From positions 25,030 through 89,029 of the forward strand of contig WGBD01000001.1 in NCBI GenBank assembly GCA_015494465.1: 64,000 nucleotides of DNA, given 5' to 3'. Positions 3,633-57,627 of the stretch are shown in pieces (the first letter of the stretch is position 1; each line of letters opens with the position of its first letter). Source of the DNA: Candidatus Omnitrophota bacterium (GTDB lineage: Bacteria; Omnitrophota; Gorgyraeia; S143-82). A program made the position numbers and the translations under genes. Under the pieces are notes generated by a model. That model did not search any database and was not told the DNA's origin. It was given only the letters and a program-made list of their open reading frames with translations.

Positions 3633-4148
3633 TTATCGGTGTCTTCTCCTCCCAAACCACACGAAGCCGTTTTCGTCGATGTAATACTTTTGGAAGGCAA
3701 ACATATAAGGATGGTCAAAGGAGACGAAGTGCCATTGGCCACTCTGACTAATCCTTATCACATTTGACATCGTAACGAAGTCCAGTTGCCAACCCTGAGG
3801 GCCTTTTCTCAAGAAGAAAGGGGCATACTTTAGATCCTGTGGGTAATAGATGACCGCATACCTGCCTTTTATGGCAATCTTAAAAGGGACTCCCTCGTAT
3901 ATTCGCATATTATCCTGTTGGGCGTCGGTCACCGTCCAACGCCTGAAGAACTCTTTGGTCTCGTCGGTGTAGATGTCAAGGTCCGGGTCCTTTACGTGGA
4001 GACGACAGGCCTCCAGATAGCGTTTCAGGGTAAACTCTGGCCTGGATTGGGCACGGAAATAACTCTTATCAAATTCTCTGGCCCATAAGGTAAGACCGAT
4101 CCCAAGCACGAGCAGACACAAGATTACAGAGCTACCTCGCTTCATCAT
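3633..4148 (-). CDS. hypothetical secreted/periplasmic protein
   Basis: 171 aa ORF with N-terminal signal-peptide-like segment MMKRGSSVILCLLVLGIGLTLWA; no family recognised. Confidence 0.5.
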   Translation of the reverse strand: MMKRGSSVILCLLVLGIGLTLWAREFDKSYFRAQSRPEFTLKRYLEACRLHVKDPDLDIYTDETKEFFRRWTVTDAQQDNMRIYEGVPFKIAIKGRYAVIYYPQDLKYAPFFLRKGPQGWQLDFVTMSNVIRISQSGQWHFVSFDHPYMFAFQKYYIDENGFVWFGRRRHR

Positions 4149-4197
4149 CTCCCCCCTTCTTATGCCGGCCTCCCTTAACTAAAAAAATTATAGGGTT

Positions 4198-4235
4198 ATG
4201 AGCCAGATTCTTCTAGAAAGATTTCGTCTCATTTC
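4198..4235 (+). repeat. copy A of a 38-nt start-codon-containing dispersed element
   Basis: ATGAGCCAGATTCTTCTAGAAAGATTTCGTCTCATTTC; 34/38 identical to copy B; opens a 25-codon ORF MSQILLERFRLISVSKGFLGLKAEA. Confidence 0.6.
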
Positions 4236-4271
4236 GGTCTCGAAGGGTTTTTTAGGTCTCAAGGCCGAGGC

Positions 4272-4306
4272 GTGAGACAGATTCCTTATGGAAGATCTTG
4301 TCTCAC
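4272..4306 (+). repeat. copy C (diverged) of the same element, at the GTG start of the plus-strand membrane protein ORF
   Basis: GTGAGACAGATTCCTTATGGAAGATCTTGTCTCAC; shares CAGATTC...RAAGAT...GTCTCA core; ends form an 8-bp inverted repeat GTGAGACA/TGTCTCAC. Confidence 0.5.
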
Positions 4307-5099
4307 AAGGTATGATATAGGGATGAGGTCGGTAGTGTTAGCGCTCGAGTTGTTTCTGTTGGGTTATCTTGGGGCGGTGGTATCGGCCCTGTTGTATAAG
4401 TATGCCCCGAAATTGCATCCCGATCGGGGGTTGCTTCAGGCAAGCGTATTTGCGATACTCAGCCCGTCTTGTCTTTGCGCAAGTTATCCAGTCCTTCTCA
4501 CTATGAACAATCGCTATCTCAGGGTGTACACCGCCAGTCTCTCTGCTCTACTAAGTCCGTACATATTACTCTTTTCCTGGAGGCTGTTGGGCTGGGAGTT
4601 TGCGGGAGAGAGGGTCATCCTTTCCCTCACTTTATCATCCTTAATCGCCTCTTTTACCTACCGCATGGCCCCTCCGGGGGCACCTGTCAAAGACACCCTA
4701 TCCTCACTTGACGAAAGGCCGGCCCTGATGGCTATCGCAAACTCCATATTCAAACTCTCTTTAAGACCGCTCATCCTGACTATAGCGATTTCTCTCCTCG
4801 TGGCAAAGGTGTTGGATCCAAATCTGGTTGGGAAGTACGCCCTTTTCCCGGGCACGCGGACGATGGCGATAATATTGGCAGGTCTTGGAAAGTTCTGCTA
4901 CGGGCAGGAGACATTCCTCTTATATGCTATCCGCGGTCTGCCCCACAATCCGGGATTCCGACTGGGATTTTCACTGACCGGCAGTGGGATATGCCTTGGA
5001 ATGGTGCCTCTCTATCTCAAGATCTACGGCAGGATGGGAACCGCAATCTTTCTAATTACGACCTTCCTATTCGCCCTATCGCTCAATTGGCTCATTTAA
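4272..5099 (+). CDS. hypothetical polytopic membrane protein (start at GTG 4272 or ATG 4320)
   Basis: 275 aa ORF with several hydrophobic helices; one of only three plus-strand genes; GTG start coincides with repeat copy C. Confidence 0.5.
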   Translation: MRQIPYGRSCLTRYDIGMRSVVLALELFLLGYLGAVVSALLYKYAPKLHPDRGLLQASVFAILSPSCLCASYPVLLTMNNRYLRVYTASLSALLSPYILLFSWRLLGWEFAGERVILSLTLSSLIASFTYRMAPPGAPVKDTLSSLDERPALMAIANSIFKLSLRPLILTIAISLLVAKVLDPNLVGKYALFPGTRTMAIILAGLGKFCYGQETFLLYAIRGLPHNPGFRLGFSLTGSGICLGMVPLYLKIYGRMGTAIFLITTFLFALSLNWLI

Positions 5100-38309: not shown

Positions 38310-39449
38310 CTACCTCCTCCTCAAGAACGCCACCACCTCCACATGTGGGGTGTGAGGGAACATATCCACCGCCTTAAAGTCCACCAACTCGTAGACCGAG
38401 AGCAGATCCTTGAGGTCTGCCATAAAGGTCAGGGGATTGCAGGATATGTATACGAGGTCCCGCGCCCCCAACTTGGCCACCCTATACCGGACCTTAGGAG
38501 GCATCCCAGAGCGTGGGGGATCGATTATCACGCAGTCAAACTGCCCCCGCCAGTTGGGATTCAGGCCTAACAAGGCGCGGACATTTCCCTTGAGCATAGA
38601 GTAGCCCTTTATCCCGTTCAGTAGGAGATTCTGCTTGGCCTCCCCAACCGCCCCGTCGTCCATCTCTATACCCAAGACCTCAAATCCCGCCTTCGCCAAG
38701 ACCAGCCCTATCCCCCCCGAACCCGCATACAGATCCAACACCTTGCCCTGAACATTATTAGAAACGTAATCCTTTACCCAGGCGTAGAGTATCTCCGTGC
38801 TCCAGGGATTGACCTGAAAGAATCCCCGCAGGCCTACCACGAACCTCATCCCGAGGATCTCCTCTACCAGATACCCCGCTCCCCTCAGGTGAACGACCCG
38901 GTCATAACCCACCGCATCCCCCCAACCATCGTGGACCACCCAGTAAAGCGTATCCACCCAGTCCAGATCAGAAAACCGCCGGGCCAACTCCTCTCCCAAG
39001 ACCTGCCCCTGGGAAGAGGTCACCAACGCCAGGAGATATTCCTCCTTACGGGTCCGCTTGACCACCACATACCTCAAGAAGCCCTTGTGAGAGTACTTGT
39101 CGTAGGGGATGAGGGAATGCTCACGGGCGAAATCCCGCAGGACATCAAGTAGTTCGGGCAGGCGCTCGGAAAACAGAAGGCACTCCTGGAGGTCTATTAC
39201 CCTCCGGTTCTGTCCCCTCTGATGGAACCCCAAGAATACCTCTCCCCCCTCACCCCGAGAAAAGGTGAGCTCGACCTTGTTCCGGTAAAAAAAAACGCGC
39301 GGGGAGGGCTCTACCTCGAACTCCGGCAGATCAACCTTGTGCTTATAGGCCTGCTTGTGCACCAGATCCCGCTTGAGGCCCAATTGCTCCTCGTAAGGCA
39401 CATCCTGTATGGCACAGCCTCCGCAGACCCCAAAGTGTTTACACAGCAT
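38310..39449 (-). CDS. RNA (uracil-C5)-methyltransferase, RlmD/TrmA family
   Basis: N-terminal Cys cluster CKHFGVCGGC, SAM-binding VLDLYAGSGGIGLVLA, catalytic region DPPRSG. Confidence 0.75.
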   Translation of the reverse strand: MLCKHFGVCGGCAIQDVPYEEQLGLKRDLVHKQAYKHKVDLPEFEVEPSPRVFFYRNKVELTFSRGEGGEVFLGFHQRGQNRRVIDLQECLLFSERLPELLDVLRDFAREHSLIPYDKYSHKGFLRYVVVKRTRKEEYLLALVTSSQGQVLGEELARRFSDLDWVDTLYWVVHDGWGDAVGYDRVVHLRGAGYLVEEILGMRFVVGLRGFFQVNPWSTEILYAWVKDYVSNNVQGKVLDLYAGSGGIGLVLAKAGFEVLGIEMDDGAVGEAKQNLLLNGIKGYSMLKGNVRALLGLNPNWRGQFDCVIIDPPRSGMPPKVRYRVAKLGARDLVYISCNPLTFMADLKDLLSVYELVDFKAVDMFPHTPHVEVVAFLRRR

Positions 39450-40338
39450 ACCCCAGCTCCCTTATAAGATCGGGATCGTTCATCCAATCCTCGTCTACCT
39501 TGACCCACAGATCCAGATGCACCTTCTTGCCAAACAACAACTTCAACTCCTTCCTGGCCCTCGTGCCCGCAGCCTTAATGAGCTGTCCCTCCCTACCAAT
39601 AATTATACCCTTGTGCCTGTGCTCCTTGGTAATCACCACTGCCTTTATATATATAAGGTCTGGCCTCTCTTCCCTAATCTCCTCAACCACCACCGTAAGA
39701 TAGTGGGGGATCTCCTCGCGCAAGAGGTTAAGGAATTTTTCTCTAATTACCTCTGCCACAAAGAGTTTCAACGGAAAATCCGTCTTCATGTGCTCGGGAT
39801 AGTAATAGTGATCCGCAGGAGGCAAGAGCTCAAACAGGGCATCTATAACCTCATCTACCCCTTCTCCTCGAATAGCGGAGACCGGGATAAAGTACTTGGT
39901 AATCTCCTTCGTCTCCTCGATGTAGTCGTTCACAAAGCCCTTACCCTTGTCCTTTTTATTGAGGGCGACCACCACCGGCTTGGAGACCTCCTTGAGGGTA
40001 TCAATGATAACCCGCTCCTCCTGCCCAATCTTGTCGTGGATGTCCACCACATAAAGGACCGCATCCACATTCTGCAGGGCAGTGAAGGCAGTGTTGTTGA
40101 ACCGCTTAGCCAAGGGAAAGCGTATGAGATTTATCCCCGGGGTATCCACGAAAACGATCTGTCCCCGGTCATCGGTGTATATTCCCCTCACCTGATGGCG
40201 GGTGGTCTGGGGAACCGGAGATATAATAGAGACCTTGTGATTCAATATAGCGTTCAGCAGGGTAGACTTCCCCGTATTGCATCGTCCCACTATGGCAACA
40301 AACCCAGCCTTTTTGGACATAGCGGTATATTCTATCAC
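39439..40338 (-). CDS. era: GTPase Era
   Basis: G1 GRCNTGKST, G3 DTPG, G4 NKKD, C-terminal KH domain; TAGAAT 9 nt upstream of ATG without Shine-Dalgarno. Confidence 0.93.
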   Translation of the reverse strand: MIEYTAMSKKAGFVAIVGRCNTGKSTLLNAILNHKVSIISPVPQTTRHQVRGIYTDDRGQIVFVDTPGINLIRFPLAKRFNNTAFTALQNVDAVLYVVDIHDKIGQEERVIIDTLKEVSKPVVVALNKKDKGKGFVNDYIEETKEITKYFIPVSAIRGEGVDEVIDALFELLPPADHYYYPEHMKTDFPLKLFVAEVIREKFLNLLREEIPHYLTVVVEEIREERPDLIYIKAVVITKEHRHKGIIIGREGQLIKAAGTRARKELKLLFGKKVHLDLWVKVDEDWMNDPDLIRELGYAV

Positions 40339-40378
40339 AAAAGAGTAGAATCCTCCCCACTAATCCACCCCCGGATCT

Positions 40379-40416
40379 ATGACACAGATTCTTCCAGAAA
40401 GATTTTGTCTCATTTC
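40379..40416 (+). repeat. copy B of the 38-nt element, antisense to flanking genes
   Basis: ATGACACAGATTCTTCCAGAAAGATTTTGTCTCATTTC in the 309-nt spacer between the small membrane protein gene and era; opens plus-strand ORF 40379..40711. Confidence 0.6.
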
Positions 40417-40647
40417 CCAGAGGTCACGGACAAAAAACTATAGGAAAAACGAACGAGAAGACATAGTACAGGCCCATCCAGGTCCTATAACGAAACAGAC
40501 AGCAGATTGCCCTCTGATCGTTTTTAATCCACCTCCGTGTCCTAAAAAAGGAGAGAAAAGAGGCAACCGCCCGCTGAATCCCAATGCGAACTTTATTTTT
40601 ATTTCCGGAGCCCGTTCTCTTATCTCTGCATCACCTAGATCTCACTT

Positions 40648-40983: not shown

Positions 40984-42492
40984 CTAAAAACAACCTCTCC
41001 TGTCGGTCCTTTCCAGGACGAGCTCTATCTTCTTCCTCTCCTTCAAATCCCGCAGTATCTCTAATGCGATTCTATCTCCCGGTCTGTGCCTGCGTATGAT
41101 GTCCAGAAACTGCCTCGGGAGCAATTCACCGTAAGGACCTTTTCTGCCGTCAACGGTTAGAATGATATCGCCCGCCTTCAACCCTGCCTCGTCAGCAGGA
41201 CTGCCCGGACACACATCAAGCACAACGGTTGAGGGCACACCTGCGTACTTTTCTTCTACCTGGTTCGTCATCGCGATGTATGCCCCAATCCAAACGCGCG
41301 GAGGCCTCTGGTAATGCTCATATATGGAAAACACATCCCTGGCATTCGGCATCTCTGCCAGCAGGTCGGACCTCTTCCTCAACGACATCATACGCGGATC
41401 CAATGTGTAATCATTCATAAGGACTTCCACATAAGGGTAAAGCCAGGCATCGTTTGCCCAGTGGACATACGGTCCGCCGAAGACGAGTCCCCGGGCCATT
41501 GCATCCAAGTCCATCTGCCAGCCCTTGTCCGTTTTTTCTATGAAGTACGGTGGAAGTTTTGCCATCTTCATGTAATCCGCATCCGGATGAAACACCACTG
41601 CCCACTTGCCCTTCTGTCTCACCTCATAACTAACGCCATCCCAGGCCTGGGCCTCGGCTCGTCTCTGGCCGGTAGTGGTGTTCCAGTACCTGAAGAATGC
41701 CTTGGTGCGCTCGTTGAAGAGGTCCACGGAATAATCCGACAAATTCATCGTGCAGAATTCCAGATAGCGCCTGAAGGCAAGTTCCGGAGTGGGTTGGGCA
41801 GAGAAGTACTCCTTCAACTCCTTGGGCGTTTGGGGGCGCGGTCTCCTGAGGGCGGATCCAAAGTCGAATCTCCCTTTTGCGCCTCCACCACCGGAGTAGT
41901 GGCCTATCCTTAAGCGCTCCTTTATCTGCCTCACATCAACGCCCCTATCCTGCATACGGTATATCCTGTAGACGAAGTTCTCTATACTGGCCAGAAAGCC
42001 TTTCTCCCAGTCCGCCTGTTCAAGAAACTCGTTCAGTATCTCCCTCTCCACCTGGCCTACATACCTATCCGTAAACACCGCCTCTAAGTCATAACCGATC
42101 TCTATCTTCACCTGTTTGGTCCGCCAGTCTATCAGTATCAGGACACCCTTCTTACCCTGAGTGCTCCTGCCTATCTGCCAGCGGGTAAATATGTCCGCGG
42201 TATAGGTGGTAATGTCCTTTGGAGCCACGGAGGGCACCACCATCACCACGAAGTCTATGTCAAAGGCCTTACGAAGGTTTTGCCCCATTTGATTTATCTC
42301 TCTCACCACATCCATTGGGACCACACCGACGAAATCAAAGCAAAAGATCTCCTTACCCTTGGCATCCTTGGGCCTCCTCGCCGGGACACTTCCGCGTTTG
42401 TGGGCATGGGAAAACCGTTCGTAAGCCCAAAATCCAAGGCCGGAAAGCATCACGAGGAGCAATCCAATCAGTACAACCCGACCGATCTTCAT
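40984..42492 (-). CDS. membrane-anchored TPM-domain protein with C-terminal PDZ domain
   Basis: N-terminal TM; TPM/DUF477-like block FDFVGVVPMD...VLILIDWRTKQVKIEIGYDLE; about 250 aa unassigned; C-terminal PDZ GSPADEAGLKAGDIILTVDG. Confidence 0.7.
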   Translation of the reverse strand: MKIGRVVLIGLLLVMLSGLGFWAYERFSHAHKRGSVPARRPKDAKGKEIFCFDFVGVVPMDVVREINQMGQNLRKAFDIDFVVMVVPSVAPKDITTYTADIFTRWQIGRSTQGKKGVLILIDWRTKQVKIEIGYDLEAVFTDRYVGQVEREILNEFLEQADWEKGFLASIENFVYRIYRMQDRGVDVRQIKERLRIGHYSGGGGAKGRFDFGSALRRPRPQTPKELKEYFSAQPTPELAFRRYLEFCTMNLSDYSVDLFNERTKAFFRYWNTTTGQRRAEAQAWDGVSYEVRQKGKWAVVFHPDADYMKMAKLPPYFIEKTDKGWQMDLDAMARGLVFGGPYVHWANDAWLYPYVEVLMNDYTLDPRMMSLRKRSDLLAEMPNARDVFSIYEHYQRPPRVWIGAYIAMTNQVEEKYAGVPSTVVLDVCPGSPADEAGLKAGDIILTVDGRKGPYGELLPRQFLDIIRRHRPGDRIALEILRDLKERKKIELVLERTDRRGCF

Positions 42493-43910: not shown

Positions 43911-44270
43911 CTACAACTCCTTTATCAACTTGCTAGCCACTTCCGCCGAGATATTCCCCTTATCCACCTGATTGAGGATGTACCGGATCTCACCAGCCCT
44001 ATGCTCCTCCACCAGATCCCTGAGGCGGGCAATCACCCTGTCCAGACGCAGGCGTACGGTGGGATAACTTACCCCCAACTTCCGGGCCAGATCCTTTAGT
44101 TTCCCATCGCAGAGCAGGAACTCCTCTATCAGGCGCTGGTCCTCGTAGGGCAACCTGCTCAAGGCGCTGAGGGAGAACAGACCCGAGATCTCCGTCCCGC
44201 AGTCCTGACACCCGACCGCGCTCACCCTCACCTTACCACCGCAGAACGGGCACCTGTCCATCAACCTCAT
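43911..44270 (-). CDS. DUF2089-like zinc-ribbon/HTH protein with C-terminal SHOCT-like motif
   Basis: CPFCGGKVRVSAVGCQDCG zinc ribbon, HTH-like LARKLGVSYPTVRLRLDR, C-terminal ILNQVDKGNISAEVASKLIKEL; strong SD GGTGAGGAG and TTGACT-N16-TATATT upstream. Confidence 0.6.
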   Translation of the reverse strand: MRLMDRCPFCGGKVRVSAVGCQDCGTEISGLFSLSALSRLPYEDQRLIEEFLLCDGKLKDLARKLGVSYPTVRLRLDRVIARLRDLVEEHRAGEIRYILNQVDKGNISAEVASKLIKEL

Positions 44271-44460
44271 CTCTCCTCACCTCATCTGGAAATATAACAA
44301 AAATTAAACCAAAGTCAACAAATTGATTGAAAAAATGCAACAAAATTGACGAATTAATTTAACAATATTGAATGGCTACTCCATTCCCCCTCCCATCCAC
44401 CCCTCAGCAAGGCTCTCAATCCTAACTCTGGTCCTATATATGTGTTAAAATTAATCCGTA
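44271..44460. promoter_or_regulatory. AT-rich divergent promoter region between DUF2089 gene (minus) and comM-rpoN (plus)
   Basis: 190 nt far more AT-rich than surroundings; direct repeats CAACAAATTGA / CAACAAAATTGA / AATATTGAA; minus-strand TTGACT-N16-TATATT plus SD GGTGAGGAG; plus-strand TAAAAT 10 nt before comM ATG. Confidence 0.5.
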
Positions 44461-55378: not shown

Positions 55379-56383
55379 CTATCCCAACACTACCGTGCGG
55401 TTCTTTCCCTGTCGCTTCGCGGTGTAAAGGGCCTGATCCGCTATTTCTATTATAGAATAAGGATCCTTTCCGTCCTCAGGAAAAGCTGCCACGCCTACGC
55501 TGACGGTCACATTAAGGGTCTCGTTATAGGCAATTACGGGACTGGCGGAGACCACCTCACATATACGCTCCCCCGCCCTCTGGGCACCCTTCTTGTCGGT
55601 GTCCAATAGGATCACGCAGAACTCCTCCCCACCGTAGCGACCCACCAGATCTATCTCACGGGCGGTGGACTTTATGCGGGAGGCCACCTCCTTCAGGACC
55701 GCATCTCCTACGAGATGGCCGTAGGTATCGTTTATCTTCTTGAAGTCGTCCACATCTATCATCAAGAACCCAAGTGGACTGCCGAACTTGTTCGCCCGCA
55801 ACAAACTCTCAAAGAACCTATCCAGCACATACCTGCGCACATACACACCGGTCAGCTCGTCGGTTATCGCCATCTCTTCTATCGCCTTGTACAGCTTAAT
55901 CCTGCGCATCCCCAAGGCAAACTGATTGGCGAGGATGTGGAAGACATCCAGATCCTTCTCCTTACACCCCTTCACCGCAAGGTATCCCCGGATGTCGTTC
56001 TCCACCCTTATGGGGAAGAGGTAGTACTCGAGGCTATGGGTCAGTGACAACTGACTGCTGTCTATGAAGATACAGTCCTCTACCTCTATGTATTCCTTTA
56101 GCTTCTCCTTAAATGTCTTGAACATCTCCACCTCATCGAGGGTCTTGGTAAGGTCCTTGATTATCTCGTAGAGTCTTACCTCCTTCTCCGCTGCCCGCTC
56201 AAACTGCCGGTTCTTCGCCCGTTGGCGCTCCAGATCGTAGTACATCTTCTTGCGGGTGGACTCCAACTCTTCCACCTTTGCCTTCATTTCCGCCACGATC
56301 TTGCGGTGCTTCCTGACGAGGTAAAGTATCACCCCAAGACCGATCCCCACGACTATGGTCAGACTAAACATCAAGCAGAACAT
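55379..56383 (-). CDS. diguanylate cyclase (GGDEF), membrane-anchored
   Basis: N-terminal TM and coiled coil; GGDEF domain with RYGGEEF active site and RxxD-like context. Confidence 0.85.
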   Translation of the reverse strand: MFCLMFSLTIVVGIGLGVILYLVRKHRKIVAEMKAKVEELESTRKKMYYDLERQRAKNRQFERAAEKEVRLYEIIKDLTKTLDEVEMFKTFKEKLKEYIEVEDCIFIDSSQLSLTHSLEYYLFPIRVENDIRGYLAVKGCKEKDLDVFHILANQFALGMRRIKLYKAIEEMAITDELTGVYVRRYVLDRFFESLLRANKFGSPLGFLMIDVDDFKKINDTYGHLVGDAVLKEVASRIKSTAREIDLVGRYGGEEFCVILLDTDKKGAQRAGERICEVVSASPVIAYNETLNVTVSVGVAAFPEDGKDPYSIIEIADQALYTAKRQGKNRTVVLG

Positions 56384-57627
56384 ACCCGGTCCTTCCCCAT
56401 AGACTTGGCCCGATACAGCCTCTCATCCGCCTTCTTTATCAGGGTGGTTCGGTCCCGACCGTCTTTGGGATAACTGGCCACTCCTATGGATACGGTAACC
56501 CGCGTAGGGGTGCGCCTGAGGACCACCTCCTTCTGGGCGATCTCCTCCCTTATGCGCTCAGCTATCTCCACCGCGGACCTCGTGTCCTTGCCCTCCAGAT
56601 AGATAAGAAATTCCTCCCCACCGTACCTGGCCACGATGTCCTTGTGTCTGCGGGTGTGCTTCAGAAGGATCTTTGCGATGCTCTTTATGATGATGTCTCC
56701 TGCGGTGTGGCCGTAGGTGTCGTTGTACTTCTTGAAGTCGTCTATGTCCAGCATCAGGAGAGAGAAGGTGCTCTGCTTGCGATAGAGGAGGATCTCGTCT
56801 AACCTCTCCAGTATGTACCTCCTCAGGTAAAGCCCGGTCAGGCCGTCGTGCAGGGCCAACGATTCCATCCGCTTGTAGAGTATAGTATTGCCTATAGCCA
56901 CTGCAGCAAGGTCCCCTATCGTCTGGAGAAAGGAGAGATCCTCGGAATAGAAAGTATACTTGTCAAACGAGTTCAACCTCAAGATCCCTATTACCTTCTC
57001 TTCCAATATCAACGGCACCGAGATGAGGGAACCGACTGGGGTGGTTTTGCCCAGACTCTCCAGATCGAAGCGATAATCCTGACTGGTATCCTCTATGAGG
57101 AGGGGACAGGCGTGCTTTATTATCCACTTGTCGAAAATGTCTCCGGTCTTGGGCAGTCGATAAAAGTCCACATCGACCCCTGCGGAATCCACCAGTTCTA
57201 GACGCTGTTTCTCCTCGTCCACGATGTAAATCACGCATTGATCCGCCTTGGGTATCATGTCCAGAGTCTTTTGGACTATGTAGTGGGCAACTGCCTCCAG
57301 AGAGAGGTTATAACTCAACTTCTGCATCATGGACTCGAGCGCGAGATAGCGATTCTTCTTTCTCTGGAGAGCAGATTCTATCCGGGAGGCCTGCTCTAAC
57401 TCTGCCTGAAGGAGATTTATCCGCTCGTAGAGGTCGCTTTTCTTTATCTCCCAAGCACAGACCGAGTTGCTTATCCGACGATAAATGAAGACGATCGCGG
57501 AAAGGACGACTATGTAGGCCAAAAACAAAAAGAAGAGGTTATAAGGACAGGTCAGGGTTACATACACAAGAGGAACGACTACGTAAGCAGAGATCGCAGT
57601 GATTGTTAGTAGACTACGCTTAAACAA
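56371..57627 (-). CDS. diguanylate cyclase (GGDEF) with TM region and GAF-like sensor
   Basis: N-terminal TM helices, GAF-like middle domain, GGDEF domain with RYGGEEF. Confidence 0.85.

Follow-up and report, generated by a model that had tools for sequence, protein, structure and literature searches.

A short sequence that opens with a start codon recurs at two places in the window, the 64,000-nucleotide (64-kb) stretch of an Omnitrophota contig that was analysed here, and the question it raises is what kind of element it is. An earlier note described it as a 38-nt element with three copies and offered three candidates, namely a regulator operator overlapping start codons, a structured 5' RNA element, or the remnant of a duplicated gene 5' end. 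To our knowledge, gene regulation in the Omnitrophota is almost unstudied, and the group has no cultured, genetically tractable members. In this paper we describe the copies and their dyad symmetry, the constraint on them, their positions relative to consensus promoter boxes and the paralogy of the arrays that they form, and we find neither a coding nor an RNA-covariation signal. The reading that we favour, tentatively and at a little short of an even chance, is that of a predicted operator-like site, to which a DNA-binding protein would attach as a dimer or tetramer and which spread as regulatory regions were duplicated.

All three copies are real and lie where they had been reported, A at 4198-4235, B at 40379-40416 (34/38 identical to A) and C at 4272-4306. 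Within the window, the strict search pattern of the earlier note matches A (4204-4231) and B (40385-40412) and nothing else, its degenerate core matches A, C (4278-4305) and B and nothing else, and neither pattern was matched in 100 dinucleotide-preserving shuffles. A repeat search groups the copies as one family (D5) in which, compared with A, B is 90% and C 64% identical, and a profile built from the copies found no further one in the whole 64 kb. All three (3/3) are intergenic (Table 1).

Table 1. Positions of the element and of neighbouring genes and predicted promoter boxes, numbered from the first letter of the window.
Feature	Position	Strand	Remarks
171-aa secreted or membrane-anchored protein gene	3633..4148	-	downstream of copy A; paralog of the middle of the TPM/PDZ protein
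Predicted -10 box TATAAT, 171-aa gene and the helicase/nuclease genes behind it	4187..4192	-	read from sequence; T(A/G)GAAG of copy A 17 nt upstream
Copy A	4198..4232	-	ATGAGACGAAATCTTTCTAGAAGAATCTGGCTCAT on minus strand; proximal to 171-aa gene; TATAAT box 5 nt beyond its end
Spacer between A and C, 39 nt	4233..4271		two additional GTCTC/GAGAC half-site-like pentamers (4237, 4256)
Copy C	4272..4306	+	distal at locus A; central 5 nt in the reverse-complement state; TATGAT box of membrane gene 4 nt on
Predicted -10 box TATGAT, membrane gene	4311..4316	+	6 nt before ATG 4323, leaderless-type; TGGAAG of copy C 16 nt upstream
Permease-like membrane protein gene	4323..5099	+	downstream of copy C; true start ATG 4323 or GTG 4335, not GTG 4272
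era GTPase gene	39439..40320	-	downstream of copy B
Predicted era extended -10 TGATAGAAT	40329..40337	-	8 nt before ATG 40320; identical in L018
Copy B	40379..40413	-	single copy; centre ~74 bp upstream of predicted era transcription start

Eight additional copies were found outside the window, at loci L002, L019, L018, L005 (Omnitrophota S143_82) and L004. Contigs of close relatives were found via protein homologs, and copies L5 and L4 via pattern scans of species-representative genomes, in which these two were the genuine matches. The alignment used throughout holds 11 copies, A, B and C together with L2a, L2b, C', L18-1, L18-2, L18-3, L5 and L4. Loci L002 and L019 belong to the JOHN19 relative (sample ERZ23491094), where the order is C', a 54-nt spacer, L2b, an AAA_14/DUF4143 ATPase gene, L2a and the 172-aa ortholog of the 171-aa gene. 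Copy L2a (L002 1297-1333) is the ortholog of copy A, and the gene upstream of it differs from that in the window; C' (L019 95-127) is the ortholog of copy C and L18-3 (L018 374-410) that of copy B. In GCA_054005615.1 (L018, Era 96% identical) three tandem copies stand before era, L18-1, L18-2 and L18-3 in order toward the gene. Copy L5 lies upstream of argB in S143_82, whose representative genome gave one pattern match as a whole, and copy L4 lies on a 1.7-kb contig binned as Dojkabacteria. Both loci of the window are thus conserved in relatives and copies occur in other genomes, the opposite of the lack of copies and of conservation that the earlier note had linked to chance or a recent local duplication.

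Searches farther afield gave nothing of this kind. A scan of JGI metagenomes returned chance matches that lacked the other conserved positions, a scan of viral contigs returned one chance match, and plasmid and phage records held only chance partial matches. A phage or plasmid origin was rejected on the last two results. Outside a small group of uncultivated Omnitrophota the element is not known.

The repeat unit is a near-palindrome of 35 bp centred on its 18th base, and this replaces the 8-bp stem with a 19-nt loop that had been proposed; that the copies are imperfect palindromes was correct. The minus-strand consensus from the 11 copies is ATGAGACAAAATCTTTCTGGAAGAATCTGTCTCAT, in which two half-sites of 17 bp, ATGAGACAAAATCTTTC, flank one central base. 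Thirteen pairs of symmetric positions show complementary bases in 93% of the cells of the 11-copy alignment, which is dyad symmetry of the operator kind. The outer arm reads ATGAGAC / GTCTCAT and is the source of the ATG or GTG, so that by construction a start codon stands at the beginning of both strands. The central 5 bases occur in two reverse-complement states, TCTGG-like in A, B and five others and CCAGA-like in C and three others.

It is these start codons that invite a coding reading, in which the unit is a short peptide, an upstream ORF or a duplicated-gene 5' end. Short ORFs open from the ATG or GTG at the head of either strand of the palindrome, and an in-frame 3-nt indel separates the window from L018 downstream of copy B. 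Against this, the ORFs vary in length (6 to 110 codons) and their tails are unrelated, most of the substitutions that separate the copies are non-synonymous, the gene callers use other starts, and similarity ends at the palindrome. The GTG at 4272 in copy C had been taken as the start of the membrane gene; the callers place the start downstream, at 4335 (254 aa) in the window and at the ATG equivalent to 4323 (258 aa) in the relative's locus L019. In L019 a 4-nt insertion in C' breaks the frame into the membrane gene, so that the copy's ATG is no longer in frame and a stop precedes the real ATG. For a duplicated gene 5' end, similarity would have to reach beyond the 35-41-nt unit to which it is confined, and the genes that follow (era, argB, AAA_14 ATPase, secreted protein) are unrelated. 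The coding reading is effectively refuted: the ATG/GTG match is incidental, the elements overlap or precede predicted promoters and not start codons, and conservation is at the level of nucleotides and not of protein, as had been suggested.

Conservation of the element exceeds what the surrounding DNA would give. Orthologous copies agree at 32/35 (A vs L2a) and 34/35 (B vs L18-3) positions, compared with 72% identity at era third codon positions and 54-78% in adjacent intergenic DNA. With neutral identity set at 72%, the binomial P is 0.005 for A vs L2a and 0.00015 for B vs L18-3, and it ranges from 2e-6 to 0.0015 when the adjacent intergenic identities replace 72%. These values show the element to be under selective constraint. 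In the 11 copies, 17/35 core positions are invariant, among them 11, 17 and 25, which would be unpaired in a hairpin, and the half-site asymmetries at 9/27 and 11/25 are retained in nearly all copies.

Constraint on a palindrome could also reflect an RNA hairpin, transcribed with the downstream gene or by read-through from the gene upstream and acting in processing, stability or translation control. The gene-proximal copies are all oriented like their downstream gene, as judged by arm asymmetry, several copies lie between co-directional genes, and the consensus hairpin is about -12 to -17 kcal/mol. However, the orientation count comes to only about four independent cases, and the consensus-like copies fold well (z -1.9 to -4.9) as would any palindrome. 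Pairing in the 11-copy alignment is 93.0% vs 92.0% in column shuffles, of which 75/500 do as well, and 42/500 attain the covariation score, which is therefore not significant. The only double change is at the terminal pair (1-35), from A-U to G-C in two copies, and RNAalifold retains the outer 8-bp stem alone, with a covariation term of -0.19 kcal/mol. There are 8 G-U cells on the gene strand vs 5 on the opposite strand, and thus no strand bias of G-U over A-C.

Of the individual copies in the window, C alone beats shuffled sequence in folding (z -3.7 and -4.6); A and B, with one stem-breaking change each, do not (z +0.4 to -1.4). Rfam 15 gave two tRNAs alone at gathering score in the window and nothing credible up to E = 10 around either locus, and no intrinsic terminator was found at any copy, the stems being AT-rich and lacking a T run. 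Predicted promoters lie downstream of the copies or overlap them. We give an RNA-level element, and with it the structured 5' RNA of the earlier note, little probability; the invariant unpaired positions and the tolerated stem breaks instead indicate sequence-specific recognition of duplex DNA.

The positions of the copies relative to promoters bear on what such recognition might do. The promoters are consensus predictions, so that the relation of each copy to its promoter is an inference, and so are the reality of these promoters, the binding of a protein and the direction of regulation. In A and L2a a conserved TATAAT begins 5 nt past the copy end, and in C and C' a TATGAT lies 4 nt past the copy end and itself 6 nt before the ATG. 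Copy L2b is followed after 6 nt by a 10/12 promoter, TTGACA-17-AATATT, and L5 after 22 nt by another, TTCAGA-17-TATAAT, and in B and L18-3 the box TGATAGAAT lies 44 nt past the copy end and 8-9 nt before the era ATG. The site centres are about -35, -35, -61, -74 and -75 from the predicted starts, with no common helical phase, and none of the gene-proximal copies lies downstream of its own predicted promoter. A hexamer at the palindrome centre, T(G/A)GAAG, stands 16-17 nt upstream of the -10 in A/L2a and C/C', and this placement relative to the -10 of the gene that is faced explains why the centre of C and C' is flipped. The distal copies with a flipped centre number three, and for two of them (L18-1, L4) there is no promoter on the side that they face. 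Promoters of the sigma-54 (GG-N10-GC) and ECF (AAC-N16-17-CGT) types were looked for by eye in and after the copies and do not fit, the spacing being wrong.

At locus A, copies A and C sit in the gap between divergent genes, the 171-aa gene on the minus strand and the permease-like membrane gene on the plus strand. Behind the 171-aa gene, on the same strand, follow genes for a UvrD-like helicase and a PD-(D/E)XK nuclease. The 21-nt stretch at the TATGAT of the membrane gene, CACAAGGTATGATATAGGGATG, is identical in the window and L019, and L002 shares copy A and the TATAAT with the window, the remaining leader being only 54% identical. A motif said to accompany both loci, AAAAAAYTATAGG, stands at locus A, where on the minus strand it reads CCTATAATTTTTTT, is the predicted -10 box for the 171-aa gene and has been retained in the relative; the closest relative does not conserve the corresponding motif at locus B.

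Copy B had been described as antisense to the LemA/TPM module and era, and it overlaps neither, sitting in a 310-nt gap between the gene for a 106-aa membrane protein (stop 40648) and era. A promoter scan gave no sigma-70 site at locus B. The era layout of an extended -10 followed by the ATG recurs at L009 (TGTTATAAT, 9 nt) and L022 (TGCTATAAT, 9 nt), and this recurrence, with spacings of 8-9 nt, supports the assignment of the era promoter and is suggestive of leaderless mRNAs. The window Era has its best named matches in Candidatus Omnitrophota, and the Era of Omnitrophota MAG S143_82 is 74% identical. No copy was found near era at six loci (~140 kb) from five relatives that are more distant (Era 69-84% identical), where the gene lies within an accA-thyX-x-era operon or behind still other genes; on its 5' side the era block borders on five different neighbours among the relatives.

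How one element came to stand before such different genes is best seen in the arrays. Copies stand alone or form arrays of two or, at most, three. Array members are in direct orientation, 64-90% identical, with start-to-start distances of 65, 74, 85 and ~92 nt. The array of L018 aligns copy for copy with that of JOHN19, L18-1 with C' at 30/35, L18-2 with L2b at 30/35 (a GAAAAAA variant being common to the two) and L18-3 with L2a at 35/35, and the first spacer can be aligned as well. One regulatory array has thus been duplicated before two unrelated genes, era and the 172-aa gene. Copy number varies between close relatives, with 1 vs 3 copies at era and 2 vs 3 at the 171-aa locus, and L4 agrees with C' at 34/35. 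That copy A is a recombinant of the middle and proximal copies was considered and is not claimed, there being one informative site only. The edges of the element are also edges of homology: BLAST homology between the window and L018 starts at 40416 and that between the window and L002 at 4235, the contigs of L019 and L002 share their last 45 nt, which belong to copy L2b, and the era and uvrD synteny breakpoints coincide with the element.

Spread of this kind might be the work of the element itself, if it were a REP- or MITE-like repeat, that is, a hairpin palindrome or a composite of 130-190 nt with terminal palindromes, carried by a transposase-like, hairpin-recognising enzyme of the RAYT or IS200/IS605 type or by recombination; it would persist as a selfish element or for a structural role, for example in stabilising mRNA or binding protein, and not as a dedicated operator. 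We consider this unlikely, although a good deal agrees with it. Like REPs and REPINs, the element is an imperfect palindrome of ~35 nt, intergenic, variable in number between close relatives and found at rearrangement boundaries; its consensus-like copies fold well, arrays with related spacers stand at two loci, near-identical copies occur across genomes and loci, including on a contig binned to another phylum, and synteny stops at its edge, with an assembly break inside a copy. REPs number tens to hundreds per genome, and the copy number here seems low, with 1 pattern match in the S143_82 genome, 3 in the 64 kb of the window and 0 in the ~140 kb of five other relatives. The copies lie upstream of promoters, including a divergent region, where REPs favour 3' ends and operon interiors, and they form direct arrays and doublets in place of the inverted doublets of REPINs. 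The GTAG-type 5' tetranucleotide is absent (the 5' flanks are GAA, TTG or TAA), and neither a RAYT gene nor a Y1 transposase was found among the 30 window ORFs scanned against Pfam or among the called genes of the loci. Also against a repeat of this type, unpaired positions are invariant and the window copies tolerate stem breaks.

The homology breaks admit a further reading, in which the unit is a site of the lox/FRT/dif type at which a tyrosine recombinase inserts, deletes or shuffles gene cassettes. A 13-9-13 layout can be read from the alignment, with inverted 13-bp arms ATGAGACAAAATC and GAATCTGTCTCAT around an asymmetric 9-bp spacer TTTCTGGAA that occurs in both orientations, and this resembles loxP and FRT (13-8-13) and dif/pdif sites in its ~13-bp inverted arms and ~9-bp asymmetric centre. 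In JOHN19 the AAA_14/DUF4143 gene is bracketed by two direct copies, which the window lacks. In each of the two comparisons that could test this, homology between relatives breaks off exactly at the element; the element also sits at the era and uvrD breakpoints, and two contigs from one sample share a 45-nt end that lies in a copy. The 35-bp unit would then be the target of an undescribed Omnitrophota recombination or cassette system that inserts and excises accessory genes (AAA_14/DUF4143) before core genes, which would explain both the synteny that ends exactly at the site and the assembly break in one copy, and the site would mark a new cassette system. We regard both the recombinase site and the cassette system as improbable. 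No recombinase gene was found near any copy. Between the direct repeats A and B, at a distance of 36 kb, stand the ribosomal-protein and rpoBC genes, so that recombination between the two copies would be lethal. The centres differ between copies (TCTGG, TCTAG, TCAGG, CCAGA, CCATA), and such unequal spacers would block exchange; moreover, the arms hold their orientation when the centre flips, which strand exchange does not yield. L019 contains another AAA_14 insertion, which no copies flank, and the element resembles neither dif, including its consensus, nor attC core sites.

The operator-like reading takes in the symmetry, the constraint and the promoter positions together. A dimeric or tetrameric sequence-specific protein, encoded elsewhere in the genome, would bind the 35-bp duplex. 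At locus A the back-to-back copies would each lie over the -35 region of one divergent promoter, and because A and C cover both -35 regions, a bound protein would control both promoters. The copies before era (copy B), before the AAA_14 ATPase gene in the relative and before argB in the distant relative would act in the fashion of an upstream site, 45-95 bp upstream of the predicted start. Within this Omnitrophota lineage, the whole regulatory region, with up to three copies and their spacers, may have been duplicated onto new genes, and era may have acquired its array after separation from the ancestral operon. Of the candidates first offered, a regulator operator comes closest to this evidence, without the overlap with start codons.

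Several observations weigh against an operator. The downstream genes (era, argB, ATPase, secreted protein, permease) do not add up to an obvious regulon; the site centres lack a common helical phase, and two distal copies face no promoter; recent spread or gene conversion, instead of selection for binding, could have made copies at different loci identical; and the breaks of homology at the element edge in two comparisons, together with the two contigs that end in one copy, fit recombination or mobility at least equally. No cognate regulator gene adjoins any copy. The sole small helix-turn-helix protein in the window is a DUF2089 protein (43911-44270), and it was rejected as the regulator, its own promoter bearing an unrelated palindrome.

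A strongly constrained 35-bp site that marks several promoters is a concrete handle on regulation in these bacteria. The site can be used as bait to capture its regulator by DNA affinity, and it permits a regulon to be defined computationally across metagenome-assembled genomes. The placing of one three-site array before era and before an unrelated gene is a case of regulatory-region reuse, and such reuse is one way in which a core gene could regain expression once cut from its operon.

Among known systems, several repeats and sites can be set apart from the element by form. Integron attC sites (RYYYAAC ... GTTRRRY) measure 57-141 bp, whereas the element runs from ATGAGAC to GTCTCAT over 35 bp. 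Unlike a CRISPR array, the arrays here hold three copies or fewer with uneven spacing, share a spacer between two loci and have no cas domains in the scanned genes. We know of no match to the consensus sequences of attC, dif, parS, the ARG-box, CIRCE, LexA or NikR, and these comparisons serve as leads only.

Palindromic operators at divergent promoters are well known, for example tetO1 and tetO2 between tetR and tetA, and half-sites of the NikR type stand two helical turns apart. The element is like the tetO1/tetO2 type in its dyad symmetry, in its back-to-back sites over divergent -35 regions and in that one of the two predicted promoters drives a membrane transporter-like gene, and like such operators it has extra single sites upstream of other promoters. 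It differs in the length of the site (35 bp, with 17-bp half-sites), in that the regulator gene is not adjacent and in that the downstream genes are functionally unrelated.

In its distribution the element resembles the putative mobile promoters, or promoter propagation, described by Matus-Garcia et al. (2012, PMC3488235), a class that is defined by sequence similarity of 5' regions, with the mechanism unnamed. Here too, similar upstream regions stand before non-homologous genes, both within the genome and among relatives (A vs B 34/38, L2a vs L18-3 35/35), and the shared unit includes a whole three-site array with its spacer. It departs from that class in that the shared part is mainly the 35-bp palindrome, the era -10 boxes lying outside the shared unit. 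Set against these systems, the element is most likely a lineage-specific cis-element of an ordinary kind, a predicted palindromic protein-binding site in promoter regions.

Synteny breaks repeatedly at the 5' boundary of the conserved era / tRNA-methyltransferase / Na-Ca exchanger / lepA block. When this boundary was compared between the window (39439-40338), the GCA_054005615.1 locus (L018) and the era loci of more distant relatives (L009, L012, L014, L017 and L022), five different upstream neighbours of the block were found among the relatives: accA-thyX-x, MCP with a 1126-aa protein, pst-phoU, LemA-TPM with the 106-aa gene, and a PDDEXK_9 ATPase.

In the JOHN19 relative (sample ERZ23491094), two contigs share their terminal 45 nt (L019 1-45, as reverse complement, and L002 1-45), which comprise element copy L2b and 6 nt of flanking sequence. 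A branch point of the assembly graph thus falls exactly at the element, which population-level structural variants could explain.

AAA_14/DUF4143 and AAA-ATPase-like/PDDEXK_9 genes occur as variable insertions in the relatives' genomes. One variable AAA-type ATPase gene is flanked by element copies on both sides, and another separates the permease-like membrane gene from the 126-aa gene, two genes that overlap in the window. A palindrome with perfect arms, GTAAACAATTT...AAATTGTTTAC, lies directly 5' of the second AAA_14/DUF4143 gene of L019 and looks like an operator different from the 35-bp element.

Copy L4, on a 1.7-kb contig (L004; coverage 1.6) binned as Dojkabacteria, differs at 1 of 35 positions from C', the ortholog of copy C in the Omnitrophota relative; ahead of it, at 1519-1541, part of its left arm is duplicated (ATAATGAGACATAATGAGAC). 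Possible explanations are misbinning of the contig and transfer of the element.

Copy B lies in a segment of about 150 nt that is flanked on both sides by a 14-nt direct repeat, TAATCCACC[C/T]CCG (minus strand GGTGGATTA), and element copies in L018 are followed by a related GTGGATT motif. The repeat may be due to chance or belong to a larger repeated unit.

Five genes near copy B form a same-strand run that is probably an operon. Upstream of it lie a predicted TTGACT-17-TATATT promoter and an AT-rich palindrome that is unrelated to the 35-bp element. Residues 227-333 of the TPM/PDZ protein are paralogous to the 171-aa protein encoded beside copy A (36% identity, E 5e-23), which has only two homologs among 5.8 billion proteins; thus one rare domain family is represented near both element loci.

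Coordinates of features in the window and in related loci
Feature	Location	Strand
171-aa protein gene, adjoining copy A	3633-4148	-
TPM/PDZ protein gene, near copy B	40984-42492	-
Run, in order: DUF2089 (zinc ribbon + HTH + SHOCT-like), LemA-like, LemA, TPM/PDZ, 106-aa membrane protein	43911-44270 to 40648	-
AT-rich palindrome	44341-44370	
14-nt direct repeat	40358-40372; 40524-40539	
Perfect-arm palindrome	L019 2313-2345	
Variable ATPase-type genes	L002 153-1301; L019 978-2312; L018 1-228; L022 13220-14794	
-10 box close to ATG	window 40318-40338, 4311-4325; L009 5846-5866; L022 4037-4057; L019 131-145	

A good -10 box, often TG-extended, lies just 6-9 nt before the ATG of several genes that lack a Shine-Dalgarno sequence. 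This sequence layout suggests that the lineage makes frequent use of leaderless mRNAs. As listed, the era ORF (from GTG 40338) probably includes six codons too many, the true start being ATG 40320.

Two neighbouring GGDEF genes (55379-57627) share a 64-nt stretch (55704-55767 and 56696-56759) at 78% identity and are therefore tandem paralogs. The order ABC/MalK, GAF-GGDEF, GGDEF is common to the window and S143_82 (L014); uvrD comes next in S143_82, not in the window.
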